From a phage: a stretch of DNA of 40,530 nucleotides. This document shows positions 1,444-40,284 of the stretch, in pieces. A program made the position numbers and the translations under genes. The stretch lies in sequence record PZ513997.1; one strand, given 5' to 3'. Under the pieces are notes generated by a model. The model made no database searches. It was not told the DNA's origin and saw only the letters and a program-made list of their open reading frames with translations. Positions within the stretch are counted from its first letter, which is position 1, and every line of letters begins with the position of its first letter.

Positions 1444-1983
1444 ATGCTATCGAATAAAATCAAGGCAGCGCTGGCAGGGTCTTCCCTGCTGGGCGCGAGC
1501 CTATTCGCAGTAATTGAAAGCAACGAAGGCTTATCCCTCACTGCTTACAAAGATTCCGCAGGCGTACCTACCATCTGCTATGGCGAGACTAAAGGCGTTA
1601 AAATGGGCCAAAAGGCTACGCTGTCGCAGTGTCAGGCCATGCTGATACAGTCAGCAGGGGAACACGCTAAGGCTCTTGACGGGCTTCCTATGCATCTTAC
1701 GGACGTACAGCTTCTGGGAGCCATAGACCTAACCTATAACATTGGGGTATCAGGTTTCAAGAACAGCACCGTGAAGCGCAAGCTAATGCAAGGGGATAAT
1801 AAAGGTGCTGCTCAGGCCGTACTAGCGTGGCGCTACATCACTGTTAAGGGTAAGAAGTACGATTGCTCAGTTAAGGCCAACAAGGTCTGCTACGGCCTCT
1901 GGAAGCGCCGTGTTTGGGAATCCCAAGCTATTGGCAATGAATTTAAATCAATGCAGGCAGCAGTAGCTGCTATGCCTAAATAA
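1444..1983 (+). CDS. SAR endolysin, T4-lysozyme-like muramidase (GH24)
   Basis: 179 aa. 'ESNEGLSLTAYKDSAGVPTICYGET' matches the T4 lysozyme catalytic region '[21 protein letters not shown]' with the same Glu-Asp-Thr spacing. The N-terminal Gly/Ala-rich weakly hydrophobic segment 'KIKAALAGSSLLGASLFAVI' directly precedes the catalytic Glu, as in signal-arrest-release endolysins (P1 Lyz, phiKMV gp45). Confidence 0.8.
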   Translation: MLSNKIKAALAGSSLLGASLFAVIESNEGLSLTAYKDSAGVPTICYGETKGVKMGQKATLSQCQAMLIQSAGEHAKALDGLPMHLTDVQLLGAIDLTYNIGVSGFKNSTVKRKLMQGDNKGAAQAVLAWRYITVKGKKYDCSVKANKVCYGLWKRRVWESQAIGNEFKSMQAAVAAMPK

Positions 1984-3084
1984 ATGAGTCTAATTAATCA
2001 GCGCCGTCGTATCTCTAAGGGTGGCAATACCGGCGGTGGTGGCGGTACTGGGCCACAAGGACCTGTAGGGGAGCAAGGCCCTGTAGGGCCTATGGGTCCG
2101 GCAGGTGCAGATGGCCCAGTAGGTCCAGTAGGTCCAGTCGGTCCACAAGGTCCTCAAGGCCCAGCTGGGCCTCAGGGTCCGCAAGGTCTGCAAGGTCCTG
2201 AAGGTGTTCAAGGAGCTAAGGGAGATAAGGGCGATACTGGTCCAGCGGGGCCAGCGGGTCTCAACTTCCGTGCTGCTTGGGTTCCGGGCTTGACCTATGC
2301 TTTACAGGATTCAGTAGCCTACAATGGTAGTACTTGGTTTGCTAATTCGGCTATTGAGGCAGACGTAACGCCCGGTACTGATCCTCGTTGGGTGCTGCTT
2401 GCTATGCAGGGTACTAAGGGGGATACCGGACCTACAGGTCCACAGGGGCCTCGCGGAGTGCAAGGCGTGCCCGGAGACGTAGGCCCTCAGGGTCCGCAGG
2501 GTATAGCAGGCCCGCAGGGTATTCGCGGTCCTCAAGGTGATACCGGCGAGCAAGGTCCCGCAGGGCCACAGGGCGCTAGAGGTATACAGGGAGTTAAAGG
2601 CGATAAAGGCGACAAGGGTGATAAAGGGGATACAGGCGCTACTGGACCCCAAGGACCCGCAGGTCAAAATAATACCAATAATCCAGTATATACTACACAA
2701 CTTGCAGTATCTACTAGCTATTCGGCAATAGCTATTCCTAATAACCCCGGAGTATCCTTAACGGTTAGACGTGTCAGCAATAATATTGAGTATTCATTTA
2801 CTGGTAACTCCATTGCGGGTAGGTACTTCGACGTAGAATTAGTTAACTTCCCCTCAGCGGACGTAGTCAAAAGGTATCAATCTAACCATACAATAGCAGG
2901 TACTAGCCGCTATGTAGTAGGCGACCCCGCAGGCTACACTGGTACAGGATACAAGAAGATTCAAATTACTGCAAGGGATTGGGGAGATAAGAATATTATT
3001 ATCATAGACCTGTTCCACCTACAACGAGCTGGGGATGCTAACTTCAACATCGCCATTAGGATTGAGACCTTTAAACTTCCTTAA
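1984..3084 (+). CDS. collagen-like (Gly-X-Y) repeat protein, probable tail fibre or fibre-associated protein
   Basis: 366 aa. Two long uninterrupted G-X-Y tracts ('[46 protein letters not shown]...' and '[52 protein letters not shown]...') followed by a non-repetitive C-terminal domain. Confidence 0.65.
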
Positions 3085-3684
3085 ATGGCGGTAGTAAGAA
3101 AGCAGCGTAGAGTTGACGGTAAGAAGCAGAACTACTATTGGGATACTGAATTATGTATTGAGGTAGCAGCTCCTGTAAGGAAAAAGCACTATAGCATAGC
3201 TAATCCTATGCAAGGCTTGATAGGTTACGCTGTGATGCACGATAGCGAGCTTAAACAAGGTATAACAGACGCGTTTGCTAACTTTAACGGTAGTCAGATG
3301 CGTAACGGTTTAACTGGTATCAGTATACCTAAGTTGATTGAGTTAGCAGATACACAACCAGAGCTATATAGTACTGAGCATCCAGAGAGTACTAACCATG
3401 CTGCGTATGATGCAGCGCTTACTATGCTTCTAGTATTAGTGCGTGAACGTATCCCTGAATGGGAAGAGGCGTACAGATATGATATGCATAATAGTGGGTT
3501 AAATATCGTTGATTTAATGTGTGAACAAGGCTATGACACTGATAACTATACCGGTGCTATAGCTAATAGTCTTAATCAGGTTTGGAGTGAAGGTAAGCTC
3601 TTAGTAGGCACTGAGGCTAACAAGCATTGGCTTAAATCTCAGGGATTTTCTAAACTGCGTTCCCAGCGTAATAGATACATTTGA
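3085..3684 (+). CDS. hypothetical protein (weak resemblance to DnaQ-like 3'-5' exonuclease motifs)
   Basis: 199 aa ORF. 'YYWDTEL' resembles an Exo I D-x-E motif and 'NHAAYDAALTML' resembles an H-x-A-x-x-D motif, but spacing is atypical. Weak. Confidence 0.3.
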   Translation: MAVVRKQRRVDGKKQNYYWDTELCIEVAAPVRKKHYSIANPMQGLIGYAVMHDSELKQGITDAFANFNGSQMRNGLTGISIPKLIELADTQPELYSTEHPESTNHAAYDAALTMLLVLVRERIPEWEEAYRYDMHNSGLNIVDLMCEQGYDTDNYTGAIANSLNQVWSEGKLLVGTEANKHWLKSQGFSKLRSQRNRYI

Positions 3685-3861: not shown

Positions 3862-3864
3862 TTG

Positions 3865-3893
3865 TTGACTTACCTGTTTTGTAGAGGTATAGT
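3865..3893 (+). promoter_or_regulatory. sigma70-type host promoter candidate (early promoter)
   Basis: TTGACT (3865-3870), 17-nt spacer, TATAGT (3888-3893): a near-consensus -35/-10 pair with optimal spacing. Lies at the head of a non-coding-looking island, upstream of the small early ORFs. Confidence 0.45.
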
Positions 3894-4032
3894 TACATCA
3901 CACCACAACGAGGTAGGAAATAAAGAAGATGAACATTCAGAGCATGAACTTCCCGGTAATTATTAATTGTCTCTTAGCTTCTCATGTAATTCCCTCTGTA
4001 TAACCCGAGGACGCTACGTTACGCTCAGAACC

Positions 4033-4140
4033 TATTTATCTACCCCGATTCTTCAGGAGGGCAGCGGCTTATCGTTCCCGCTAACTTGCTGGCTAGTGCT
4101 CTGCTCCGTGCCTGCGCTTACCGTTACTCGGTTACTATTG
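4033..4140 (+). repeat. copy A of a roughly 100-bp repeated non-coding element (paired with 12950-13050)
   Basis: Roughly 75-80% identity to 12950-13050 by eye, including the shared 11-mer 'tttatctaccc' and core 'cttcagRagggcaRcSgcttatcgt'. Contains a 5-bp stem (agcgg/ccgct, 4063-4082) that is replaced by aaccg/cggtt in copy B, i.e. compensatory changes. Confidence 0.45.
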
Positions 4141-4332
4141 AAGCCTTACCAACCTGTACACGCACAATCATATCTTCTAGGCTGGACATGCAAGCTGTAC
4201 CGCTTTCGTAAGTACCTTCTTCCTTGCTAGATGGGACGTATATTTGGCACTACCTTTCTAATCGCCGCTACTATCTTTAACATTACACTGCCGTTTCTTG
4301 CTATCTATGGCTTAATCATGCTGTTCGCTTAA

Positions 4333-4572
4333 ATGACTAACTTCAAAACTATGATTGCTGGTATCTTGGCAGCTGCTGCTGTTACCTTCTCTATTAAGGA
4401 TGCTCAGGCTGTTCCTAACAGCATTGAACTCTGCAACTGGGGCAAATGGGCGTACGCTCAGAACATCACGCTACAGCAGCTAGTAGACACGTTAAACAGC
4501 GTTGAAGCTATGCCGATTGATGATAGAATGCAGGTAGTAGAGTGCTTTGTAGAGGAGATGTCTAAATCATGA
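4333..4572 (+). CDS. small secreted or periplasmic early protein
   Basis: 79 aa. N-terminus 'MTNFKTMIAGILAAAAVTFSIKDAQA' has the n/h/c architecture of a Sec signal peptide with an AxA-like cleavage site. First substantial ORF after the promoter island. Confidence 0.45.
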   Translation: MTNFKTMIAGILAAAAVTFSIKDAQAVPNSIELCNWGKWAYAQNITLQQLVDTLNSVEAMPIDDRMQVVECFVEEMSKS

Positions 4573-4701
4573 ATGAACGAATGGTATGAAGAGGCAATGC
4601 CGTGGCTTATCTGGGCCTTAGGCTTCCTGATTGTATATATGATTGCTAGTTACGCTGACGACGCTAAGATTGATTCTAAAGAGGAAGATAAAGATGCTTG
4701 A
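4573..4701 (+). CDS. small membrane protein (42 aa)
   Basis: Single hydrophobic helix 'PWLIWALGFLIVYMIASYA' followed by an acidic/lysine-rich tail. Junction shows 'atgaatga', consistent with an ATGA start/stop overlap that was duplicated. Confidence 0.3.
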   Translation: MNEWYEEAMPWLIWALGFLIVYMIASYADDAKIDSKEEDKDA

Positions 4702-6210: not shown

Positions 6211-6314
6211 ATGGACCTTAATACGGCTTGGCAGATGGTAATGTGGCCTGTATGCGTCGTAATAGCAATCATCCTGATAATCGCGACTGAAGTAGAGAAG
6301 AGGAACAAGAAATG

Positions 6315-6487
6315 AATGATTCAAGAGGATGATTTTGATACTTGGTATAACATTCACGTAAGGCACCGTGCTCGTGAGGAAGCTACTAGGAGGAAACTAG
6401 CAGCGCTTAATCGCGGGCACTCTGAGAAGTATGCTAAGAAGTTAGCTTCTGAAACTTACAACGAATACCTGACGAGGAACTTAAAAT
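6315..6487 (+). CDS. small early protein, paralogue 1
   Basis: 57 aa. C-terminal 'HSEKYAKKLASETYNEYLTRN' is clearly paralogous to 'HSEAHAKKLAQGIYSEYLKRY' in the adjacent ORF 6488-6649. Confidence 0.35.
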
Positions 6488-9915: not shown

Positions 9916-11130
9916 ATGAGCAGCATACTGATTTGGGATATTGAAACGCAGAACGTACCTTACTATGGCGGGGTTGCTACACCTTACTGCCCAGATAACT
10001 ACATTGTGGAATCAGGCTTCAGGATTGATAGAACTAATCCAGATGGTACGGTGACGTGCAGTGATGTAGGTAGCGTGCGTTACGAGTCGCGGGAGGAGTT
10101 CATCTCAGCACCTAGTAGTCAGTGGTTGCCTATTCAGGACGATACTTGGTTAATGGTAATGCATAACGCCGCATATGAGATTAGCTGGGCGTTGACGTTT
10201 GCTAGGGAAGAGTTTGAAGCATTCCTGAAACGGGGAGGGCGCGTATTCGATACAATGCAAGGCGAGTACATTGCCTCAGACTTCCAAAACCTTTACCCAT
10301 CATTAGATGAGACGGCTCCTAAGTACGGCGGCAGCCACAAGGTTGACGGCGTTAAACTGCTATGGCAGCAGGGCGTGTTAACAGCAGATATTGACCCTGT
10401 ACTGCTGCATGAGTATCTAACAGGGCCAGAAGGTGATATCGTAAACACAGCGTTATGCTTCTACGGGCAGTGTGCAGTGTTCGCTGAGCGTGGGCAGATG
10501 CCTATGGTCTGGGAAAGGATGGATAGTGTACTGGCCTTAGCCTACTGCGAGTTCAACGGTGTGTACGTAGACATGCCTACAGCCAGAGCTAACCAGAAGG
10601 AGCAGGAGGACGCTATAGCAGAGCTGAAGCAGACGCTGCAAGGCTTCTTACCTGAACTGCCTGAGGGATTTGAGTTCAACTGGAACAGCGGTTATCATAT
10701 GAGTGCGTTGGTGTACGGCGGTACGGTTAAGTACAAGTGCAAGGTCCCGTATGACCCGCCAAAGTTTGTAAAGTTCGATGCCTACCTGGCCGATGTTAAG
10801 GGTACTCAGCAATACATAGATGTTAATGATTGGCAAGATAGCTGGACGTACAGCCGTGAAGTGTTTAAGTCTGGACGTAATAAAGGTCTGCCCAAAGTTT
10901 ACAAGGTGGAAAGTTCAGAGCAGTCTATGAAGTGGGGTGAGCGCCTGTATAAGTTCGAAGGGCTTGTGCACATCCAAGACCTACCAGCAGTATTGCAAGA
11001 GAAGTACGCAGAGCGCGGAGAGTTCCGAGGTGCTCAGACATTGGCAGATGGTACACCTGTGTTCAGTACAGGGACTGATGCTATGAAAGAACTGGCTAAC
11101 TATTTTATTGGGATGGAAGAGAATGAGTAA
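9916..11130 (+). CDS. DNA polymerase, N-terminal part (3'-5' exonuclease domain)
   Basis: 404 aa. Exo I motif 'ILIWDIETQN'. Followed in frame by the polymerase-domain ORF. Confidence 0.8.
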   Translation: MSSILIWDIETQNVPYYGGVATPYCPDNYIVESGFRIDRTNPDGTVTCSDVGSVRYESREEFISAPSSQWLPIQDDTWLMVMHNAAYEISWALTFAREEFEAFLKRGGRVFDTMQGEYIASDFQNLYPSLDETAPKYGGSHKVDGVKLLWQQGVLTADIDPVLLHEYLTGPEGDIVNTALCFYGQCAVFAERGQMPMVWERMDSVLALAYCEFNGVYVDMPTARANQKEQEDAIAELKQTLQGFLPELPEGFEFNWNSGYHMSALVYGGTVKYKCKVPYDPPKFVKFDAYLADVKGTQQYIDVNDWQDSWTYSREVFKSGRNKGLPKVYKVESSEQSMKWGERLYKFEGLVHIQDLPAVLQEKYAERGEFRGAQTLADGTPVFSTGTDAMKELANYFIGMEENE

Positions 11131-12285
11131 ATGAGTAACAAGGCTTCGGAGTTCTTCAAGGCATACAGTGAGATGACCTTGCGTGAGAAAGATTTAGGCT
11201 TCTATGAGAAGAAGGAATTTAACAAGGACGGTAGCCTGCGTAAGACTACAGGTATGCTTCCGTATGTAATCCCTCAGAAGGAAGACGGCAGCGGCATCAT
11301 TCATCACAGATTGAATCACTGCTCAACCACGACCGGACGACTATCAGCATCTAACCCGAATATGCAGCAGTTGCCGCGTGAATCTAAGGTTAAGCAGATT
11401 CTGCGTAGTCGTTACGGTGAGCAAGGTATGATTGCTCAGTGTGACTACTCAGCTATGGAAGTTGTAATGGGCTGTGTAATAACAGGTGATAAGAAACTAC
11501 TATCCTTGCTTGAAGCTGGTACAGATATGCACTGCTATCGTTTAGCATTCCAAGAGGGTATGCCTTATGAAGAAGTCTACGAGCTTTGCCATAACCCGGA
11601 TGCACCTAACCATAAGGAATGGAAGAAGAAACGAACAGCAATCAAAACCTTCAGCTTCGCAGCGCAGTATGGAGCTTCCGCTAAAGGACTGGCGTTCGCC
11701 TCTGGTGCCAGCCTGAAGGACGCTGAGAAGTTCTTAGCTAACGAAGAAGCCCTGTTCCCTGAATCTATTAAGTACCGTGATGTAATTGCAGCAGAGGTAA
11801 ATCGTACAGCACTGTTAGAGCCTATGCGCCGCGAGCAATCAGATGATGGTAGCTGGCGTATCTATCGGGAAGGCTATTTTACTGCTCCTTGTGGTACTCG
11901 TTACCGCTTCCGTCAGAAACCTGTATGGCGTGAAGGTAAGCAGGTCATGGACTTTAAACCTACAGAGATGGCTAACTATCCATTTCAAGGTTCAGGTTCT
12001 CTGCTTATGCTTATTGCGATGGGTATGATTCTGCGCGCAGGATTAGCTACGGATTGGGGTAACGGTAGTTGGTGCTTGTTAGCAACTGTACATGACTCCG
12101 TATATTGTGACTGTAAAGATGAGTCAACGGCGAGGGAAGTAGGTCAATTAATTAAGAAATGTATGGAAGGTGCAAGAGATAGAATGCTGCAACTTTGGCC
12201 TAACTTCGGAATACTACAGGACGTTAAATTCCCTGCCGAGTGTGGTATTGGTAAATCATTTAAAGAGGAGCAGGTACTTGGCTAA
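11131..12285 (+). CDS. DNA polymerase, C-terminal part (family A polymerase domain)
   Basis: 384 aa. Motif A 'CDYSAMEVV', motif B 'RTAIKTFSFAAQYGAS', motif C 'VHDSVYCDC'. Confidence 0.85.
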   Translation: MSNKASEFFKAYSEMTLREKDLGFYEKKEFNKDGSLRKTTGMLPYVIPQKEDGSGIIHHRLNHCSTTTGRLSASNPNMQQLPRESKVKQILRSRYGEQGMIAQCDYSAMEVVMGCVITGDKKLLSLLEAGTDMHCYRLAFQEGMPYEEVYELCHNPDAPNHKEWKKKRTAIKTFSFAAQYGASAKGLAFASGASLKDAEKFLANEEALFPESIKYRDVIAAEVNRTALLEPMRREQSDDGSWRIYREGYFTAPCGTRYRFRQKPVWREGKQVMDFKPTEMANYPFQGSGSLLMLIAMGMILRAGLATDWGNGSWCLLATVHDSVYCDCKDESTAREVGQLIKKCMEGARDRMLQLWPNFGILQDVKFPAECGIGKSFKEEQVLG

Positions 12286-12949: not shown

Positions 12950-13050
12950 CGTTTTATCTACCCAGAGACTTCAGAAGGGCAACCGCTTATCGTCCTCGGT
13001 TAACGTCTTGCTATGTGGCACATCTTACTTACTTCGTTACTGCTTGTCAA
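12950..13050 (+). repeat. copy B of the roughly 100-bp repeated non-coding element (paired with 4033-4140)
   Basis: See copy A. Lies in the 366-bp non-coding-looking island 12826-13191 downstream of the HNH gene. Stem aaccg/cggtt at 12981-13001. Confidence 0.45.
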
Positions 13051-13380: not shown

Positions 13381-13902
13381 ATGAACTATTTAGATATCTG
13401 CGAGAAGTACAATGTAGGAAGCCTGCGCGACGCTAACCTGCGCGACGCTGACCTGTACGGCGCTAACCTGTACGGCGCTGACCTGCGCGACGCTAACCTG
13501 TACGGCGCTAACCTGTGCGGCGCTGACCTGCGCGACGCTAACCTGTACGGCGCTAACCTGTGCGGCGCTGACCTGCGCGGCGCTAACCTGCGCGGCGCTA
13601 ACCTGCGCGGCGCTAACCTGTACGGCGCTAACCTGCGCGGCGCTAACCTGCGCCTAACCTGCGCGGCGCTAACCTGTACGGCGCTAACCTGCGCGGCGCT
13701 AACCTGCGCGGCGCTAACCTGTGCGGCGCTAACCTGTGCGGCGCTAACCTGCGCGGCGCTAACCTGCGCGGCGCTAACCTGTACGGCGCTAACCTGCGCG
13801 ACGCTAACCTGCGCGACGCTGACCTGTGCGGCGCTGACCTGCGCGACGCTGACCTGTGCGGCGCTAACCTGCGCGGCGCTGACCTGCATGGGACTGACTT
13901 GA
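13381..13902 (+). CDS. pentapeptide-repeat protein (Qnr/MfpA-type fold), reading frame disrupted
   Basis: First 90 codons encode perfect A(N/D)LxG pentapeptides ('[30 protein letters not shown]...'). At 13651-13661 one 15-nt unit is 11 nt, shifting the called frame into 'LTCAALTC...'. The pentapeptide frame continues to a TAG at 13935-13937 ('...[19 protein letters not shown]'). Confidence 0.6.
13426..13886 (+). repeat. 15-bp tandem repeat array (about 31 units, one truncated to 11 bp)
   Basis: Units of form 'cgcgRcgctRacctg', head to tail with no spacers. This is the coding repeat of the pentapeptide-repeat gene. Truncated unit at 13651-13661. Confidence 0.85.
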
Positions 13903-19035: not shown

Positions 19036-21486
19036 ATGAAACACGAATCATTAGAACAGAAAGTAGAACGTCAGGTACAGCTAGAGAAGGATTACCGTAC
19101 ACGTAGCCTGAATAAGTCACGTGAGCTTGTACAGAAAGCTATGCAAGCTGGTAATCTTTCAAGCCTGCCTAAGGTATCTCGTATGATTGCAGCTGCTTAC
19201 GACACCGTAGCAGCAGGCATTGACGAGATGAAGGCAGAGAAAACAGCAGGCGTAGGCGGCAAGTACCGCAGCGTTATACGTCTGGTTCCTACGGATGTAC
19301 TGACCGTGATGACTTTAACTAAGTGTTTCGATGCCCTCTTTGTATCTGAAGGCGGCAGCTCTCGCGTGAGTGCTGGTACTCTGCTGGCTAATATTGGTCG
19401 TCAGGTACAGGCAGAAGTCCTAAGCATTCAGCTTGAGACTGTAGCACCTGCATACATGAACCGAGTGTTCGAGTACTTGAAAGAACGTAATACTACCAGC
19501 CCTTCCCACATCATGAAGACACTGCGCGCTTCAGCTGAGAATGTGCACTTAGGGCATGAGCCGTGGAGCAACTCTCAATGTGTAGCGGTAGGTAAGCTCC
19601 TGCTTCAACCAGCTTGGGAGACGGGCCTGTTCCAGTGGGATAAGGCTACCGATGCCACCCGCATGTCCTACCTTGCACCTGCACCTGAATTAGCCGAGCA
19701 CTTGCAAGAACTGGTAGAAGATGCAGATACAGTAGATATCAAGCCGCCTATGCTGGTTAAGCCTAACCGCCACGATACACTGTTCTCCGGCGGTTACCTG
19801 CTCCCTTCTACCTGTAAGCGTGGTACTTATCACAACCGCCAGATTACTCGCAGCATGAAGCGCGATGTGTCTGACGCATTCAAGGAAGCGACTGAACTTA
19901 AGTCTGCTCTGAATAAGTCTCAAGAAGTTCCTTACGTAATTAACAAGCAGATTCTTAACCTGATTAATGAGGCGCGTCGTACTGGAGTAACTGCCGGTAT
20001 GCCCAGCGCTTTCCCTGCTCCTAAACCTGAATGGTATCTGGACGGTGTACCTAAAGAAGAGTACACAGAGCGTCAGATGGATGACTTCCAAACTTGGAAG
20101 ATGAACATGCGCAACTGGTACATCAATGAGCGTGCAAGGGTAAGTAAGCTGCGTTCCTTGATTTCACTGGTTCAGATTTGCGAAGAGTTTAAAGATGAAG
20201 AAGAGCTGTACTTCCCAACCTGCGTTGACTGGCGCTACCGTCTGTACTTCAAATCAAGCCTGCATCCTCAAGGTTCTGACATGCAAAAAGCTCTGCTGTC
20301 CTTCGGTCGGGCAAAGCCTCTGGGAGAGCGGGGTCTGTTTTGGCTCAAGGTACACGTCGCTACCTGCTATGGTTATGATAAGGCCTTATTCGAAAAGCGT
20401 GCAGCTTGGACTGATGCTAATATCGAGCAGATTCGACTTGTCGCATCAAGTCCGTTTAATGCAGAGGCTTTTAAAAGTGCCGACAGTCCGTGGTGTTTTC
20501 TGGCTGCCTGCATCGACCTCGTTGCTGCTCTTGACTCTGAAAGCCCAGAGCTTTACGAATCGCGGCTTCCGGTGGCTATGGATGCAACCAACTCTGGCAG
20601 CCAGCACTTCTCAGCTCTACTGCGTGACCCAGTAGGCGGTAAACTTACTAACCTGTTCTGGGAAGGTAACGAAGAGAAAGCGGATATGTACATGGACGTT
20701 AAGCAGCGTACTGATGCTAAGGTCATCATGGACTTGGACAATCCTGAGTTCGTAGTACAGGCTCAGTTCTGGCGTGAGAACGAGATTACTCGTAGCATGA
20801 CCAAGCGCCCTTGCATGACACACGTATACTCTGCAACTGTTCGCTCGTGCTCTGAGTACATCCTCCAGTCTGCGCAGGAGGAAGGCTACGAAGGCACTGA
20901 GGAGTACAGCCTGTTCAAGCTGGCAGGTTACCTGAGTGGACGTATGAAGGCGGCGGTAGAGGACGCTAACCCAGCGGCTACAGCAGCAATGAAGTACCTG
21001 CAATCCCTGTGCTATAAAGTTCCGGCAGCCAATCACCTGCAATGGAAGACTCCGCTAGGTGGTCTGGTTATTAATCGTTACACTGAGTCTGAAGAGACTA
21101 CAGTCAAGGTTAAGAGCATGAACTTATCGCACCTGCTTATCTATAACCGTAACTACGATGTAAACAACAAGCGTAAGGCTAAGTCAGGTATCTCCCCTAA
21201 CTGGATTCACAGCTTAGATGCCACGCACTTGATGATGACTATTAATGCGTTCGAAGGTGATATCATGCCTATTCACGATTCAGTAGCTACACATGCTTGT
21301 GATGTAGATGTAATGCAGAAGGCAGTACGCGAGCAGTTCGTGCGCCTGTACACTGAGCACGATGTACTGCAAGAGATTACTGACGCAGCCGTAGAATGCG
21401 GCGCTGACTTGGAAGGTTTAGAAATGCCTGTTAAAGGTAATCTTAATATCCAATTAGTGAAGGAATCCCCGTTCTTCTTCTGCTGA
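19036..21486 (+). CDS. T7-like single-subunit DNA-directed RNA polymerase
   Basis: 816 aa. 'DATNSGSQHFSALLRD' vs T7 'DGSCSGIQHFSAMLRD'; 'RSMTKRPCMTHVYSA' vs T7 'RSVTKRSVMTLAYGS'; 'PIHDSVATH' vs T7 'IHDSFGT'. Its position after the replication genes is the phiKMV-like arrangement. Confidence 0.95.
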   Translation: MKHESLEQKVERQVQLEKDYRTRSLNKSRELVQKAMQAGNLSSLPKVSRMIAAAYDTVAAGIDEMKAEKTAGVGGKYRSVIRLVPTDVLTVMTLTKCFDALFVSEGGSSRVSAGTLLANIGRQVQAEVLSIQLETVAPAYMNRVFEYLKERNTTSPSHIMKTLRASAENVHLGHEPWSNSQCVAVGKLLLQPAWETGLFQWDKATDATRMSYLAPAPELAEHLQELVEDADTVDIKPPMLVKPNRHDTLFSGGYLLPSTCKRGTYHNRQITRSMKRDVSDAFKEATELKSALNKSQEVPYVINKQILNLINEARRTGVTAGMPSAFPAPKPEWYLDGVPKEEYTERQMDDFQTWKMNMRNWYINERARVSKLRSLISLVQICEEFKDEEELYFPTCVDWRYRLYFKSSLHPQGSDMQKALLSFGRAKPLGERGLFWLKVHVATCYGYDKALFEKRAAWTDANIEQIRLVASSPFNAEAFKSADSPWCFLAACIDLVAALDSESPELYESRLPVAMDATNSGSQHFSALLRDPVGGKLTNLFWEGNEEKADMYMDVKQRTDAKVIMDLDNPEFVVQAQFWRENEITRSMTKRPCMTHVYSATVRSCSEYILQSAQEEGYEGTEEYSLFKLAGYLSGRMKAAVEDANPAATAAMKYLQSLCYKVPAANHLQWKTPLGGLVINRYTESEETTVKVKSMNLSHLLIYNRNYDVNNKRKAKSGISPNWIHSLDATHLMMTINAFEGDIMPIHDSVATHACDVDVMQKAVREQFVRLYTEHDVLQEITDAAVECGADLEGLEMPVKGNLNIQLVKESPFFFC

Positions 21487-32523: not shown

Positions 32524-35500
32524 ATGGCTCAGTTCCTGAATCAAGAAGCTAACCCCGCAATAAAGGATTCTGCTAAAGGTGATACCCTAGTAGAAGTACA
32601 GCAACCTCAAGAGACTGTCCGTTGGAATGATGCTACTGACTTAGGTGCATCTGCACTTGAACGTGCATCTTTAACAGCACAAGCTAAGACTCCAGCTGTA
32701 ACAGCAGGCGAGTCCTTCATGGCTGGTGTAGGTAACTCTATTGTTGCTGCTTCATTACGTAAAGCATTCTCCCCTGACTTCCCTACTGACACATCCTTTA
32801 AACCTATTGAGATGCTTCAGAAGGATAATCGTACTCGTATCTATACTCCTAATCAGGAAGAGATTGAGTACTTACAAGGTTCAGTATCATTAGAAGACTA
32901 TAACTACCGCATTGAGCAGATGCTTGAACAGCGTGAGCGTGATCAGACAGCAGGGGCTAACCTTATCTCTGGTATTGCAGGCTCCGTTATCGGTGATGCT
33001 CCTACACTGCTAGCTCCGTTTGCAGCTGCTGGCGTAGCAGGCCGTGCAGGTCTAGCGGTCCGTTCAGCTATCCGTGCAGCAGACGTAGGTTCAGCTTACT
33101 ATGCACAGGACCAGCTGGGACAGTCCGAAGGTATTACCGCATTAGTAGCAGCAGTATCAGGTGTAGACCAGCTGTTCGATATTCGTAAGGCAGTTAACGC
33201 AAGACGCGCTGTTCAACGTACTGTCGCAGGTGCAACGGAAGACGTAGCCGATACTGCAGCTAACAACGCTGTAGATGCAAGTACTGGTACTACTCGTGGC
33301 AGTACTCGTACAGAAATGCAGTTCGATGAAGCTGCTCCTACTAAGCGCACAGCTCCAGACTCGGATGCCTTTACTACTAAGATTGATTCCTTAGAATCTA
33401 CCCCGCTTAAGAAACCTATTCGTATCCTGAAAGGTCAGCAGGCTCGTGTAAGTGTACGCGCAAGTGACGTTACTAAGAACCTGTTAGCACGCGATGTACT
33501 GGACGAAGGCCAGAAGGCATTGCTGCGCTCGCTGGACGGTATTATCGATGATGTACCTGTACACCTCGTAGGTGACACTAACATCTCTAGCCGTTATAAT
33601 CTGGCTAACAATGCAGTTACCCTGCGTGCCTCTAAGAAAGGTCCCCGTACTTGGAACACCTACGGAGATGCTATTAATGGTCTGGATTCTAATACTGCTA
33701 AAATTGCTGTGCATGAGCTTATACACGCTGCTACTGTACGCGCTATTCAGTCAGGTACTCCAGAGGCATTGGAAGCTACCGCTAACCTTACTCGTATTCG
33801 CGAGCAGCTTCTTACTAGCCCTAATCTTAATGCGCGTATGCGTTACAGTCTGAGCAGTAACGAAGAGTTGCTTGCAGGTCTTGCAGATGATAAAGGTCTG
33901 GTTAATCTTCTGCGTAATACTGAAGTAGAAGGTGCTAGCGCTATTCGTCGTATTGCCCAAACTATCCTTAAAGCATTAGGTGCTAAGGTAGAAGGTAATG
34001 CCCTAAACGCTGTGCTTGATTCCTATGACGCACTTCTAGATGTAGCTGCTAAAGAACGTGGTGTTACTCGCTATAAATCTCAGGCGTTCTCTGAGTATGG
34101 TGAGTTCGCCGATACAGCTAATGGCGCAGTTAAGCAGCTGGATACCTTTAAGAAGACGTTCGCCCGTAGCTTCAGCCTGTACGATAACATTGCCGAGGGT
34201 TCTAAAGAACTAGCAGACTTGTTAGTATCTGACGGTGCAGCAGTAGGTGCTCGTCGCCCTTCAGTAGCTGATTATAAGCGTAACCTTCAGTTAGAACTGG
34301 ACGGTGCTGCTTCTGTGGTTGAGAAGGCTATTGTCGACTCACTGCGCGCAGATGGTATTGGTTTACTGGATGCGTTCTTGCAACGTAACAAGTTCAAAGC
34401 TGCCCGTCGTGAGCGTGAGTCTAAACTTGCACAGTACCTTGACCAAGCATACTCAGCGGAGACAGCAGGTCGCGAGATTCCTACCCCTCCGCAGGATATC
34501 GCCCCATTAGTTAAGGCTTACGTAGATTCTGAGTGGGCTACTAAATGGTATGACCATCTCCAGAAGTCTGGACTGGTTGAGGTGGATTCTCAGATTAAGC
34601 GCAGTCCTTACTACTTCCCACGCTCGTACAGCTACGACGCTATTCGTCAGCAGATTAATACTGGTGCTCGTCAGGCTTCTGACTACCGTGACCTGTTCCG
34701 TCAAGCCCTGCGTGATATCTATCCCGATATGACAGCTGAGGTTGCTGGTCGTGTAGCTCGTGAGATGTTCGAAAGCATCTATAACGGGAAGTCTAAACAG
34801 ACCGGTCCAGCATGGCGTAGTATTCTGGGGGGTGTAGGCAACGAAGTTATCGTTGATGCAATGCGTGCAGCAGGCGTAGCAGACGACCAGATTCGTAACT
34901 TCCTTACTACTAACGTAGCACGTGAAGCGACTCAGACGTCTCGGGTTAAGAACCTGCGTACCCGTAACCGCTTTGACTTGCAGAAGGAATATGTAGTTAA
35001 CGGTCAGGCTATGCGCATGGCTGACATTCTGGATACCGACGTGGCTAAGCAGATGCAAGGTTATACTAACCGCGTATCAGGCCGTGTAGCATTTGCATAC
35101 GCAGGTGTAACTGACCTGAATGCACTGGAAGGTATGATTAACGCAGCTAAGTCTACAGTACGCGATCCAGACCGTTATCAGAAGCATGTAGACGATACTA
35201 TCGACTTCATGGTAGGTGCACCTGTTCAAGGTTCAGAAGTACCGGAGATATTCCGTGCAGCTGGCAACCTTGCTAACGCCACTGTACTTAAGAACTCCGG
35301 TTTGTATCAGTTGGCAGATACTGCGCTAGCTATGAAAGAGTTTGGGATGGCCCGAGTACTTCGCAGCATGAAGAAAGAGAAGTGGTGGAAGGAAGCTACA
35401 GCGGTCGCTAAAGATGCTAGTCAATCCGCCCGTCTTGATTCTATCCTGCGCGGCAGTATTCAGAAGGAACTTCGGTTCCGTTGGTTGAACTCTTATGCTG

Positions 35501-36294
35501 ATGACAACTTAGACCTTACCCGTAGTTCTCGCTGGTTCAACATTACGCAGAACATCGGTCAGGCTGCACGTCACGTAAACGGTATGGGTCTGGTGCATCG
35601 TCTTCAGACTAACGTTAACGCAGGTATCGTAATGGACGAGCTTAAGCTCATGCTGAACGGCGATGCAGAAGCTACTAAGCGTTTACAGCGTTGGGGTCTT
35701 GACCCTGAACTTGCTAAGCGTATGCAAGCTGCTGCTAGTCCTGATGTAGATGCTTTACTGCCAGATGACTTACAGCTTCAGCTAGAGATTATTGGTACTC
35801 GTCTAATGGATCATGTTATCCAGCAGATTCGTGTAGGTGAGACTTCTCACTTTGCACAGTTCAGTCCAGTAGGTCGCGTAGTAGTTGGTTACGGTAGCTT
35901 TGCTGTAGCTGGTACTAACAAGATTCTACGTCGTGAGTACCGTGATAACGGCTGGATTGGCTTAGCACACCTTGCTGCGTATCAGTTCCCTTTGATGTAC
36001 CTTATTACTCAAGCACGTTTATCTGCTGATGGTAGGAAGGAATCAGAAGGTAAGATTATTGCAGAGGCTGTTAAAGCTATGAGCATCCTAGGCGGGTTCA
36101 GCTTCGTAACTGGTATCTTCGACGATCAAACCCCTAAACATAGCCTGACCGCTACTGGTTATGCTATGAACATCTTAGGCCTGATTCAGAAGGTAGCGGC
36201 AGGTGAAGCAGGCCTTAAAGACGTGTCCCGCAGCCTCCCGCTGTTGCAGGAGTTCATGCCGACCCGTGCAATCATTAATAACTTTGGAGATTAA
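32524..36294 (+). CDS. internal virion protein, gp16-like (ejection/core protein)
   Basis: 1256 aa, largest ORF, immediately before the tail fibre gene, as for T7 gp16 (1318 aa). No lytic transglycosylase motif recognised by eye. Confidence 0.6.
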   Translation: MAQFLNQEANPAIKDSAKGDTLVEVQQPQETVRWNDATDLGASALERASLTAQAKTPAVTAGESFMAGVGNSIVAASLRKAFSPDFPTDTSFKPIEMLQKDNRTRIYTPNQEEIEYLQGSVSLEDYNYRIEQMLEQRERDQTAGANLISGIAGSVIGDAPTLLAPFAAAGVAGRAGLAVRSAIRAADVGSAYYAQDQLGQSEGITALVAAVSGVDQLFDIRKAVNARRAVQRTVAGATEDVADTAANNAVDASTGTTRGSTRTEMQFDEAAPTKRTAPDSDAFTTKIDSLESTPLKKPIRILKGQQARVSVRASDVTKNLLARDVLDEGQKALLRSLDGIIDDVPVHLVGDTNISSRYNLANNAVTLRASKKGPRTWNTYGDAINGLDSNTAKIAVHELIHAATVRAIQSGTPEALEATANLTRIREQLLTSPNLNARMRYSLSSNEELLAGLADDKGLVNLLRNTEVEGASAIRRIAQTILKALGAKVEGNALNAVLDSYDALLDVAAKERGVTRYKSQAFSEYGEFADTANGAVKQLDTFKKTFARSFSLYDNIAEGSKELADLLVSDGAAVGARRPSVADYKRNLQLELDGAASVVEKAIVDSLRADGIGLLDAFLQRNKFKAARRERESKLAQYLDQAYSAETAGREIPTPPQDIAPLVKAYVDSEWATKWYDHLQKSGLVEVDSQIKRSPYYFPRSYSYDAIRQQINTGARQASDYRDLFRQALRDIYPDMTAEVAGRVAREMFESIYNGKSKQTGPAWRSILGGVGNEVIVDAMRAAGVADDQIRNFLTTNVAREATQTSRVKNLRTRNRFDLQKEYVVNGQAMRMADILDTDVAKQMQGYTNRVSGRVAFAYAGVTDLNALEGMINAAKSTVRDPDRYQKHVDDTIDFMVGAPVQGSEVPEIFRAAGNLANATVLKNSGLYQLADTALAMKEFGMARVLRSMKKEKWWKEATAVAKDASQSARLDSILRGSIQKELRFRWLNSYADDNLDLTRSSRWFNITQNIGQAARHVNGMGLVHRLQTNVNAGIVMDELKLMLNGDAEATKRLQRWGLDPELAKRMQAAASPDVDALLPDDLQLQLEIIGTRLMDHVIQQIRVGETSHFAQFSPVGRVVVGYGSFAVAGTNKILRREYRDNGWIGLAHLAAYQFPLMYLITQARLSADGRKESEGKIIAEAVKAMSILGGFSFVTGIFDDQTPKHSLTATGYAMNILGLIQKVAAGEAGLKDVSRSLPLLQEFMPTRAIINNFGD

Positions 36295-37803: not shown

Positions 37804-39516
37804 ATGATGGCTGTCACTCTAAAGGACTTCCGAGAGTTCGCATACTTAGGTATGAAGTTCCTCGGCTTTGACCTTACGGAGATGCAGCGCGATATAGCTG
37901 ACTTCATGCAGCACGGTCCGCGTAAGCGCATGGTGGCCGCACAGCGTGGCGAGGCTAAGTCTACACTCGCAGCTCTCTATGCAGTCTGGCGCCTGATTCA
38001 GGACCAGAGCACGCGTATTCTTATTGTATCCGGTGGTGAGAAGCAGGCATCTGAAGTAGCTACGCTTGTTATCCGTATGATTGAAACGTGGCCTTTACTG
38101 TGCTACCTCAAGGCTGATAGTACTCGCGGTGACCGTACCTCTTATGAGGGTTACGATGTTCACTGCGACCTGAAGCCTTTGGATAAATCTGCCAGCATCG
38201 CGTGCGTAGGTATTACCGCACAGCTTCAGGGTAAGCGTGCTGACCTGCTAATCCCAGATGATATTGAGACTACTAAGAACGGCTTAACGCAGACTATGCG
38301 TGAGCAGTTGCTTAGCATCTCTAAAGACTTTGCAGCAATCTGTACGCACGGTGATACCTTGTATCTTGGCACGCCTCAGACTAAGGACAGTATCTACAAG
38401 ACGCTTACGGGTCGTGGCTTCGAGGTTCGTGTATGGCCCGGTCGTATCCCTAATCAGGAGATGCGCGAGCGTTACGGAGAAACCCTAGCCCCGTATATTC
38501 AAACCCTCATCGACGCAGGGTACAAAGAGACAGGCTTCGGGTTAGATGGTACGTTAGGTGAATGCACCGATAAAGGACGCTATAACGAGGAAGCCTTGAT
38601 TGAGAAGGAACTGGACTTCGGCCCAGAAGGGTTCCAATTACAGTATATGCTCGACACAACCATGTCCGATGCACTGCGTACCAAGATTAAACTCAGTGAC
38701 GCTTTGATTTACACTGGCTCGCATGATGCAGCGCCTGACCGACTGAACTACATGGCTGATAAGCGCTATCTCTACGGAGAGGAACATGAGGGTATTCGAG
38801 GTCAGCAGTTGTATGTGCCGAGTCACGTAGGTGAGCACATGCTCAACTATAAGCACAAGCTGCTGGTACTTGACCCTGCTGGTAACGGTGGTGATGAAGT
38901 ATCCTTTGCAGCTGGTGGTGCAGTCAGCTCTTACATCCATCTCTTTAGTGTAGGTGGTTTGCAAGGCGGGCTTAGCACAGAGAACGTAGATACCTTAATT
39001 GACCTAGCGGTCGAGATGGGTATTACTGATATCTTCGTCGAGCGTAACATGGGTCACGGCACGGTAGAATCTTTGATTATAAACCGTCTACGTGAACGTA
39101 GTATGCCCGGCATTGGTGTCAGGGGCGGTTATAACACGTCTCAGAAAGAGAAACGTATCATTGATACTATCTCCCCTGTTACGCGTCGTCACCGCTTTGT
39201 AGTGCACGCTAGGGCGCTGGAAGACGATATCAAGTACTGTATGCAGTACAGTCGTGATAAGCGCTGGCTTTACAGTGCGTTCCAGCAGTTATCCGGTATT
39301 ACTTATGACCGTGGTAGCCTGGCGAAGGATGACCGGGCAGACGCTATTAGTATGCTCGTAGCTGAACTGAACTCGCACCTCGTAGAGGATGAGAAGCAGG
39401 CAGCAGAGAAGGACCAGCTTAAGAAGGCGTTAGACTTTATGGATAACCCTATGGGCTGGAAGAAGTCAATGGTACAGAAGCGCAAGCGCGGTGCAAGCGC
39501 ACGTATCGGTTATTAA
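37804..39516 (+). CDS. terminase large subunit, T7 gp19-like
   Basis: 570 aa (T7 gp19 is 586 aa). Walker A-like 'AAQRGEAKSTLAAL'. Last large gene of the structural block. Confidence 0.8.
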   Translation: MMAVTLKDFREFAYLGMKFLGFDLTEMQRDIADFMQHGPRKRMVAAQRGEAKSTLAALYAVWRLIQDQSTRILIVSGGEKQASEVATLVIRMIETWPLLCYLKADSTRGDRTSYEGYDVHCDLKPLDKSASIACVGITAQLQGKRADLLIPDDIETTKNGLTQTMREQLLSISKDFAAICTHGDTLYLGTPQTKDSIYKTLTGRGFEVRVWPGRIPNQEMRERYGETLAPYIQTLIDAGYKETGFGLDGTLGECTDKGRYNEEALIEKELDFGPEGFQLQYMLDTTMSDALRTKIKLSDALIYTGSHDAAPDRLNYMADKRYLYGEEHEGIRGQQLYVPSHVGEHMLNYKHKLLVLDPAGNGGDEVSFAAGGAVSSYIHLFSVGGLQGGLSTENVDTLIDLAVEMGITDIFVERNMGHGTVESLIINRLRERSMPGIGVRGGYNTSQKEKRIIDTISPVTRRHRFVVHARALEDDIKYCMQYSRDKRWLYSAFQQLSGITYDRGSLAKDDRADAISMLVAELNSHLVEDEKQAAEKDQLKKALDFMDNPMGWKKSMVQKRKRGASARIGY

Positions 39517-39699: not shown

Positions 39700-40098
39700 A
39701 TGATTCGTGCAGCCGCTGGGTTAGTACTCGTTACGGCGCTTACAGGATGCTCAGCGGCTTCTGCACTATCAGGATTAGTCGGCACTAAGCCAGACCTGAC
39801 AGTGCAGGCTGGGGCTGAGAATACTAAGCAGACCGTAGGTTTGAACAGTAGATCCGACTCCAGCACGGATACAACAATCAAAGATTCCAATGTAGGTACT
39901 CTAGACACTTCTACAAAGAAGCAGTCAGTTACTACTGGAACTATCAATACAGAGCGTGTACAGGTTGTTAATAATGACAGTACAAGCATTATACTAGCAG
40001 GGTTGGCGGGTGCAGCGGTTCCAATCGCAATCCTCATCATTATCCTGCTTTTCCGCAAGCTCGGAAGGAAGGGTGACGTAGATGAGTCTACCAATTAG
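39700..40098 (+). CDS. outer-membrane lipoprotein with C-terminal transmembrane helix; candidate unimolecular spanin
   Basis: 132 aa. N-terminus 'MIRAAAGLVLVTALTGC' is a lipoprotein signal with lipobox L-T-G-C. Ser/Thr-rich middle region, then a hydrophobic helix 'LAGLAGAAVPIAILIIILLF' and basic tail 'RKLGRKGD'. Topology and size match phage T1 gp11-type u-spanins. Confidence 0.5.
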   Translation: MIRAAAGLVLVTALTGCSAASALSGLVGTKPDLTVQAGAENTKQTVGLNSRSDSSTDTTIKDSNVGTLDTSTKKQSVTTGTINTERVQVVNNDSTSIILAGLAGAAVPIAILIIILLFRKLGRKGDVDESTN

Positions 40099-40284
40099 AT
40101 GGGTGGTGGATGGGTGGCTGATATCATGTCTTGGCAATGGGGCACTATCTCTTTTATTGTAGGTACTGTAGTAGCGGTACTAACGTTTCTTTGGAATGCC
40201 TACTATAAACGCAAGGAGTACTTGCTGAAAGAGAAAGCATTACAGAAAGGCTTAGAGTACTACGAGTTCAAGAATAAACCATAA
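40099..40284 (+). CDS. small membrane protein, holin or pinholin candidate
   Basis: 61 aa. One clear hydrophobic helix 'ISFIVGTVVAVLTFLW' followed by a highly charged C-terminus. Adjacent to the spanin candidate. Confidence 0.4.
   Translation: MGGGWVADIMSWQWGTISFIVGTVVAVLTFLWNAYYKRKEYLLKEKALQKGLEYYEFKNKP

Follow-up and report, generated by a model that had tools for sequence, protein, structure and literature searches.

Does the short open reading frame (ORF) at positions 4333-4572 of a 40,530-nucleotide phage sequence (PZ513997.1; "the window" denotes this whole stretch of analysed DNA) encode an exported protein, and what might such a protein do in the infected cell? The ORF runs from ATG to TGA on the plus strand and encodes 79 amino acids, with the N-terminus MTNFKTMIAGILAAAAVTFSIKDAQA. 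An earlier note, made from the DNA letters, had taken it for the first early gene of a T7-like phage and had suggested that its product carries a cleavable Sec signal and might act in superinfection exclusion or on the cell envelope. Here the ORF is considered in the natural genome from which it derives, together with its relatives, its predicted structure, and the known phage proteins that it resembles.

The window and the natural genome

The window is an artificial head-to-tail string of 64 ORFs, not natural genome sequence. Frame 1 of the 40,530 bases consists of exactly 64 stop-delimited segments, each initiated by ATG, GTG or TTG right after the preceding stop, and frames 2 and 3 contain 873 and 1,484 stops, respectively. 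The natural counterpart is the genome of Escherichia phage vB_EcoP_PAS7 (OQ921331.1), a member of the Autographiviridae, subfamily Slopekvirinae, and the proposed genus Cepavirus. In BLASTN comparisons with PAS7, junction-free coding segments aligned at 100%, and longer alignments across deleted intergenic DNA at 96.7-99.8%. Relative to PAS7, intergenic DNA has been removed from the window, overlapping genes have been pulled apart, and some pieces run in the opposite orientation; window 3967-4230, for instance, corresponds to PAS7 939-1202 reverse-complemented. The three late genes that come last in PAS7 (tailspike, endolysin, and collagen-like fibre) stand at the front of the window in reversed order. 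The Shine-Dalgarno sequence of the gene considered here is gone, leaving cgcttaaATG at its start. Two window "ORFs" are spurious: that at 3862-3966 starts on a promoter -35 hexamer and runs into the start of WMX18775.1, and that at 3967-4230 is antisense to WMX18775.1 plus spacer. Because of these two, the real 56-amino acid gene WMX18775.1 (PAS7 875-1045) is absent from the window. Gene order, intergenic signals, and inferences about a first gene are therefore unsafe when read from such a concatenation, and features that depend on context have to be taken from the natural genome.

Other differences from the PAS7 record were also observed. The terminase large subunit ORF of the window (37804-39516) begins 111 nt downstream of the annotated PAS7 start (36022) and encodes 570 amino acids, against 607 in PAS7, which indicates that the window was built on another gene call. 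Window 13381-13902, on the plus strand, encodes a pentapeptide-repeat protein (PF00805, E 1.6e-28); at this locus the PAS7 record has a "modular polyketide synthase" on the opposite strand (10872-11375, minus). The polyketide synthase label looks like a mis-annotation, and a pentapeptide-repeat protein is annotated at the corresponding gene of P64441.

The features of the gene and its surroundings are as follows:

3865-3893, plus strand: best upstream sigma70-like promoter, TTGACT-17-TATAGT (PAS7 811-839), a candidate by consensus match (10/12) only
4231-4332, plus strand: hydrophobic micro-ORF of 33 amino acids, MGRIFGTTFLIAATIFNITLPFLAIYGLIMLFA (PAS7 1274-1375, unannotated there), identified by its homologues and hydrophobicity
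4333-4572, plus strand: coding sequence of the 79-amino acid precursor, stop codon counted, identified by its match to WMX18776.1, purifying selection, and phrog_19819
4573-4701, plus strand: 42-amino acid single-pass membrane ORF (WMX18777.1), directly downstream, identified by hydrophobicity

The ORF at 4333-4572 is a genuine, conserved phage gene. Its product has 100% amino acid identity to the hypothetical protein WMX18776.1, encoded at PAS7 1385-1624. Comparison of codons between PAS7 and the homologue in L006 (n=49) revealed 15 synonymous-only and 13 amino acid-changing differences, and comparison between L006 and L010 revealed eight and one, respectively; these differences point to purifying selection. 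The protein also matches the profile phrog_19819 (E 6.4e-11), with residues 26-78 aligned to profile positions 13-64 of 65. The gene was already known, in that it is deposited in GenBank as a hypothetical protein, and it is not discussed in the PAS7 paper. Keyword searching of the literature on exported early or exclusion proteins of lytic phages and of the Autographiviridae returned nothing relevant. The new elements are a predicted export signal and a probable disulfide, together with the limits of the family, a linked micro-ORF, and the negative outcomes of membership tests.

In PAS7, a 493-nt gap 3' of the tailspike gene is followed by coding sequences at 1-600, 615-791, and 875-1045, a 228-nt spacer, the 33-amino acid ORF, and then the gene for the 79-amino acid protein. 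The latter is fifth in line in OQ921331.1, with four ORFs ahead of it: three annotated genes and the unannotated micro-ORF. In P64441 the homologue is sixth after the late/early gap and the 33-amino acid ORF is annotated directly upstream; the same arrangement is found in L006 and L007. On this gene order the gene falls within what is presumably the early region but does not stand first among the early genes, and the contrary impression in the earlier note arose because the window is artificial. Its description of the phage as T7-like proved only loosely right: the family is indeed Autographiviridae, but the subfamily is Slopekvirinae and the gene for the phage RNA polymerase is in the middle of the genome (window 19036-21486).

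A GGAGA Shine-Dalgarno sequence lies 6 nt upstream of the gene in the natural genome (cttaaGGAGAttactATG), and the nearest strong sigma70-like promoter is approximately 545 nt upstream. Promoter-like sites as a class are not enriched (10, against 6.9 +/- 2.8 in shuffled sequence). From the position of the gene, we infer that it is expressed early.

The neighbours of the gene are small and hydrophobic. In natural genomes, the 33-amino acid micro-ORF stops 7-9 nt ahead of the gene, and its homologues in L006, L007, L010, and P64441 have a common C-terminal motif, PFLA-YGLI(-L). On the other side, the ATG of the 42-amino acid ORF overlaps the stop codon of the gene (ATGA) in the natural genome; a homologue of this ORF is present in L007 and absent from L006 and L010. 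Another tiny single-pass membrane ORF, of 34 amino acids, is located at 6211-6315, also in the early region. The three membrane ORFs (33, 42, and 34 amino acids, starting at 4231, 4573, and 6211) and the predicted exported protein form an early cluster of envelope-directed products.

An intergenic element of approximately 115 nt is repeated in PAS7 (L005) at 1077-1191, 2990-3104, and 10385-10499. It is also found in L006 (4129-4254) and L010 (4405-4530), and remnants persist in the window at 4035-4045 and 12953-12963, both on the minus strand. The first PAS7 copy is upstream of the operon holding the gene for the 79-amino acid protein, and the second and third are approximately 20 nt downstream of sigma70-like promoters. 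From five copies of the element, RNAalifold predicted a structure of four hairpins in which 9 of 26 pairs show compensatory changes and one loop, GGGTRGATAAA, is conserved; no match was found in Rfam. The element may be a structured 5' leader or a site of RNA processing.

The predicted signal peptide and mature domain

The protein is divided as follows:

4333-4410, plus strand: predicted Sec/signal peptidase I signal peptide, residues 1-26, from sequence rules, conservation, and a low-pLDDT helix at residues 4-21
4411-4569, plus strand: predicted mature domain, residues 27-79, from AlphaFold2 and alignments A1 and A3
4432-4434, plus strand: codon of the family-invariant Cys34 in helix 1, the proposed disulfide partner of Cys71
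4543-4545, plus strand: codon of the family-invariant Cys71 in helix 3, from the alignments

The signal was called on explicit sequence rules and family conservation. Residues 1-26 comprise an n-region, MTNFK, an h-region, TMIAGILAAAAVTFSI, and a c-region, KDAQA, with the cut predicted between AQA and VP. Lys5 is followed by an uncharged hydrophobic core of 16 residues (6-21), whose highest 8-residue Kyte-Doolittle mean is 2.46. At the predicted site (A24-Q-A26 before the cut, V27-P28 after it), Ala occupies positions -3 and -1, Val rather than Pro occupies +1, and Pro occupies +2. Of the 29 sequences in alignment A1, 27 have Ala at position -1, 28 have Ala, Ser or Thr at position -3, and all have Pro28. 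Mean pairwise identity in the same alignment is 47% for residues 1-26, against 78% for residues 27-76. The first 26 residues nevertheless stay hydrophobic despite this fast divergence, which is the usual behaviour of signal peptides.

The same layout recurs across the family. A positively charged n-region, an h-region, and an AxA site are found in 76 of 82 full-length relatives, and distant relatives in the Drexlerviridae carry textbook MKK or MKR signals (MKRITAIIIATACILGSSWDVQA, with E after the cut, and MKKLITIGYIAAVLASGIGFAKA, with D after the cut). The six exceptions are four 65-amino acid Rogunavirus-type proteins starting MITEMILVASLSSPLVSQQ, in which the canonical n-region has been lost, and two proteins with a neutral n-region. 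A longer N-terminus for the Rogue1 protein was ruled out by an in-frame stop upstream.

Other types of export signal were also sought in the 79-amino acid protein. The lipobox [LVI][ASTVI][GAS]C is absent from it: its first Cys is residue 34, and Ile occupies the column (21) in which some relatives have Cys. The n-region MTNFK contains no Arg, and the twin-arginine motif of the Tat pathway is likewise absent. A hydrophobicity scan and manual reading of the N-termini showed this to be the sole ORF of the window's 64 in which a signal of this type precedes a soluble domain; the remaining N-terminally hydrophobic ORFs encode a SAR-like endolysin, a lipoprotein spanin, a holin, and three tiny membrane proteins.

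In seven of the 29 close relatives in alignment A1, the h-region ends in a Cys (examples are P0006, P0011, P0020, and P0024). In some of these the Cys completes a lipobox-like MLSC, as in P0006, or MMAC a few residues ahead of the conserved AxA. For a subset of relatives, lipidation might thus take the place of cleavage by signal peptidase I.

The predicted mature part comprises 53 amino acids (6.07 kDa, pI 4.1, net charge about -5) and contains the motif ELCNWGKW. Using the family alignment, AlphaFold2 predicts three helices (30-42, 47-56, and 62-78) with pLDDT 83-88, and draws residues 4-21 of the signal as a low-confidence helix. Across the wide family only C34, G37, L54, D64, and C71 are invariant, and the two cysteines are separated by 35-36 residues in 81 of 82 members. 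Neither a second Cys pair nor a conserved His that could complete a metal site was found in the wide-family alignment. With two invariant cysteines, placed in helices 1 and 3, and no other metal ligands, a Cys34-Cys71 disulfide is the simplest reading and is probable. Such a bond fits an oxidising compartment, namely the periplasm.

There is good support for a cleavable Sec-type signal in the sequence rules, the family-wide conservation of the n-region, h-region, and AxA site, and the two invariant cysteines of the mature part, and the earlier suggestion of a small protein with such a signal has been borne out at the level of prediction. Export of the protein to the periplasm appears very probable on the same grounds. 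A protein that instead stays in the cytoplasm, using its hydrophobic N-terminus as a structural or membrane-associating helix, is very unlikely. The 65-amino acid Rogunavirus members without a basic n-region would suit such a protein, as would the helix that AlphaFold2 simply draws at 4-21. However, canonical signals in 76 of the 82 members, the conserved AxA, an N-terminal region that diverges fast yet keeps its hydrophobicity, and exactly two invariant cysteines without other metal ligands all argue for export.

It is also conceivable, though quite unlikely, that the N-terminal segment is not cleaved and serves as a signal anchor or SAR domain, as in the T4 RI antiholin or SAR endolysins, so that the helical domain would remain attached to the inner membrane on its periplasmic side or be released conditionally. 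In the h-region of the PAS7 protein, 10 of 16 residues are the weakly hydrophobic Ala, Gly, Thr or Ser, but the cores of other family members are more hydrophobic and rich in Trp, Phe, Leu, and Met, and the uncharged run, which lies between K5 and K22, is only 16 residues long. The SAR-type N-terminus already present on this phage's endolysin and the two tiny membrane ORFs flanking the gene also speak for an anchor. On the other hand, 27-28 of 29 relatives keep small residues at -3 and -1 in the same alignment columns, a feature for which an uncleaved anchor would have no use. Cleavage after Ala26 is retained as the preferred reading.

Relatives and their distribution

The first search returned 43 close protein clusters, and a profile search 81. 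The relatives are confined to Cepavirus-like podophages and T1-like siphophages (Drexlerviridae) of Enterobacteriaceae, the T1-like carriers being Ec_L1, Phc, AugustePiccard, Rogue1/AHS24, and MM01. As a check on a prophage or bacterial origin, 185,579 bacterial and archaeal species genomes were searched with two motif patterns, and none contained a relative. An exhaustive profile search of 1.84 billion representatives returned 11 proteins at E<=0.001. Eight of these are small phage-type proteins, two of them only 37-38 amino acids long, and the other three are proteins of 1695-5421 amino acids matched across many short stretches. No other named Slopekvirinae (for example phiKDA1, ENC16, Buco or KP34) were recovered by tblastn. 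This restricted distribution looks like that of an accessory gene swapped among virulent enterobacterial phages.

A single locus was found in IMG/VR (L009 4001-4239, IMGVR_UViG_3300010266_000002), and it is frameshifted mid-gene. The N-terminal part of this homologue lies in one frame and ...NSVEAMPYDDKLIVVQCFVESMETL in another, reflecting either a sequencing error or a pseudogene.

The Drexlerviridae homologues (Ec_L1 Ec26, AugustePiccard bas01_0063, Rogue1_0058, and those of AHS24 and MM01) are uncharacterised proteins found by tblastn and profile search. They have the same two cysteines at the same spacing as the PAS7 protein and the same predicted fold in BFVD (probability 1.00), although identity is only 24-39% and the genes reside in siphophages with different neighbour genes. 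On the sequence evidence, the relationship of the PAS7 protein to phrog_19819 and to these proteins is one of true homology, and it adds no mechanism. The neighbours of the siphophage homologues encode unrelated soluble proteins, so the protein must be able to act without the podophage micro-ORFs.

Possible role and comparison with known proteins

Early exported proteins, thought unusual among T7-like early genes in the earlier note, have a precedent among virulent phages in T4 Spackle (Sp, gp61.3; PF25676), which inhibits the tail lysozyme gp5 in the periplasm and mediates superinfection exclusion. Spackle is an early protein with a cleaved signal; it forms a 75-amino acid helical bundle with a C29-C81 disulfide, and its acidic face binds a basic patch on the GH24 lysozyme of gp5.

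By analogy, we propose the following pathway for the PAS7 protein. The accessory gene, which lies at the left end of the genome (the early region) with a candidate host-type sigma70 promoter upstream, would give rise to the 79-amino acid precursor. We infer that this precursor is made early, exported by Sec, and cut by signal peptidase I after Ala26, whereupon the Cys34-Cys71 disulfide would lock a 6-kDa acidic three-helix protein in the periplasm. The gene is tightly linked to the 33-amino acid membrane micro-ORF and, in some phages, to the 42-amino acid membrane ORF. Most likely, its product would be a small binding protein or inhibitor that works in the periplasm and modifies the infected cell's envelope. 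More speculatively, this protein would match Spackle in function without being related to it, guarding the cell against superinfection or lysis from without, and its target could possibly be a lysozyme-type enzyme. Taken whole, this account of an exported, cleaved, disulfide-locked periplasmic protein with a Spackle-like envelope role is our best explanation, and we give it slightly better than an even chance.

The exclusion or envelope-protecting role, considered by itself, is put forward tentatively and is on balance doubtful. It is favoured by the Spackle-like architecture, the envelope-directed early cluster, and the presence of a GH24 SAR endolysin in both PAS7 and Rogue1. A more far-reaching version is unlikely as it stands: that these proteins constitute a hitherto unrecognised Spackle-like periplasmic effector family outside the T-even phages, in which virulent Cepavirus-like podophages and T1-like siphophages make an early, secreted, disulfide-locked 6-kDa three-helix protein, paired in the podophages with a 33-amino acid inner-membrane micro-protein. 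The two would jointly make the envelope of the infected cell resistant to superinfection or lysis from without, one possible means being the neutralisation of GH24 lysozymes.

The only Pfam-recognisable muralytic enzyme in PAS7 is the GH24 SAR endolysin. This lysozyme (PF00959) is encoded at window 1444-1983 and has a Gly/Ala/Ser-rich, SAR-like N-terminus. The other lysis genes lie at 39700-40098 and 40099-40284; a candidate unimolecular spanin of the lipoprotein type has an LTGC lipobox and a C-terminal transmembrane segment, and the holin matches the phage 21 S (pinholin) family. A 1,256-amino acid ejection protein (window 32524-36294) is labelled "peptidoglycan lytic exotransglycosylase" in GenBank and has no Pfam match at E<=0.001; because the label is without Pfam support, we do not lean on it as a target.

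The lysis genes raise the alternative that the protein regulates the phage's own lysis, interacting in the periplasm with its GH24 SAR endolysin or its pinholin and thereby blocking premature lysis or setting its timing, with no exclusion of other phages. PAS7 has both candidate partners, the PF00959 endolysin with its SAR-like N-terminus and the P21 S-like holin, and Spackle itself is a precedent for a small, acidic, disulfide-bonded helical inhibitor of a GH24 lysozyme. The T1-like phage Rogue1 carries the same type of endolysin (32% identity), and its homologue of the 79-amino acid protein is encoded approximately 750 nt upstream of the lysis cassette. In the podophages, however, the gene is in the early region, and the lysis genes are at the other end of the genome; the co-occurrence with a SAR GH24 endolysin rests on two phages and may mean nothing. 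We regard such a regulator as improbable.

To our knowledge, no exclusion or envelope-protecting factor of this kind has been known in the Slopekvirinae or Autographiviridae. If the PAS7 protein is truly such a factor, it would belong to a compact family (81 clusters) shared horizontally between unrelated groups of virulent coliphages. This would bear on the design of phage cocktails, in which one phage could block another, and on the way in which phages manage the periplasm.

Database comparisons assigned the protein to no family of known function. A Pfam scan at E<=1 gave only sub-threshold noise, and NCBIfam and PADLOC gave no match. The family profile matched no PDB sequence at E<=1 (at E<=10 there was one unrelated chance match, E 1.1), and fold comparison gave no informative match.

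The T4 RI antiholin and SAR proteins combine a weakly hydrophobic, signal-like N-terminal segment with a small helical periplasmic domain. The PAS7 protein is likewise a small phage protein with a signal-like N-terminal segment and a small helical domain, but its conserved AxA argues for cleavage and its gene has no lysis-inhibition context.

Cor (T1 and phi80) and Llp (T5) resemble what is predicted for the PAS7 protein in being small, phage-encoded, and exported, and in working in the infected cell's envelope. These lipoproteins differ from the PAS7 protein, which has no lipobox and is encoded in an early cluster of small genes, not linked to a receptor-binding-protein gene. A receptor-masking exclusion protein of this type, blocking the outer-membrane receptor of the phage, is the least probable of the readings considered here, and highly improbable. 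A small, phage-encoded, and (predicted) exported protein would be of the right kind, and a few relatives have the lipobox-like motif with Cys21, such as MLSC in P0006, but position 21 of the 79-amino acid protein is Ile. Moreover, exclusion genes in the Drexlerviridae adjoin receptor-binding-protein genes, whereas the homologues are in small-gene clusters elsewhere, and the carriers differ in receptor: PAS7 is predicted to use the O103 antigen, and LptD is the inferred receptor of AugustePiccard.

Spackle offers the closest likeness in layout. Homology to it was rejected on several counts. BLASTP gave a match of E 0.028 over 27 amino acids. Full-profile comparison with hhalign gave 44%, mostly from alignment of the signal peptides, and this fell to 2% over 16 columns once the signals were trimmed. 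There was no PF25676 match at E<=1, although all Spackle relatives carry PF25676, and comparison with the solved Spackle structures revealed no shared fold. Spackle is an analogy in architecture, not a case of family membership. Both proteins are products of virulent coliphages with an N-terminal signal and a small, all-helical, acidic mature domain (predicted, for PAS7). Each has a Cys in the first helix soon after the cut (DLCEW in Spackle, ELCNW in PAS7) and a second Cys in the C-terminal helix. The motif LC(E/N)W, whose Trp is not conserved in the Drexlerviridae branch, lies at the same distance from the cut in Spackle and in the PAS7 protein.
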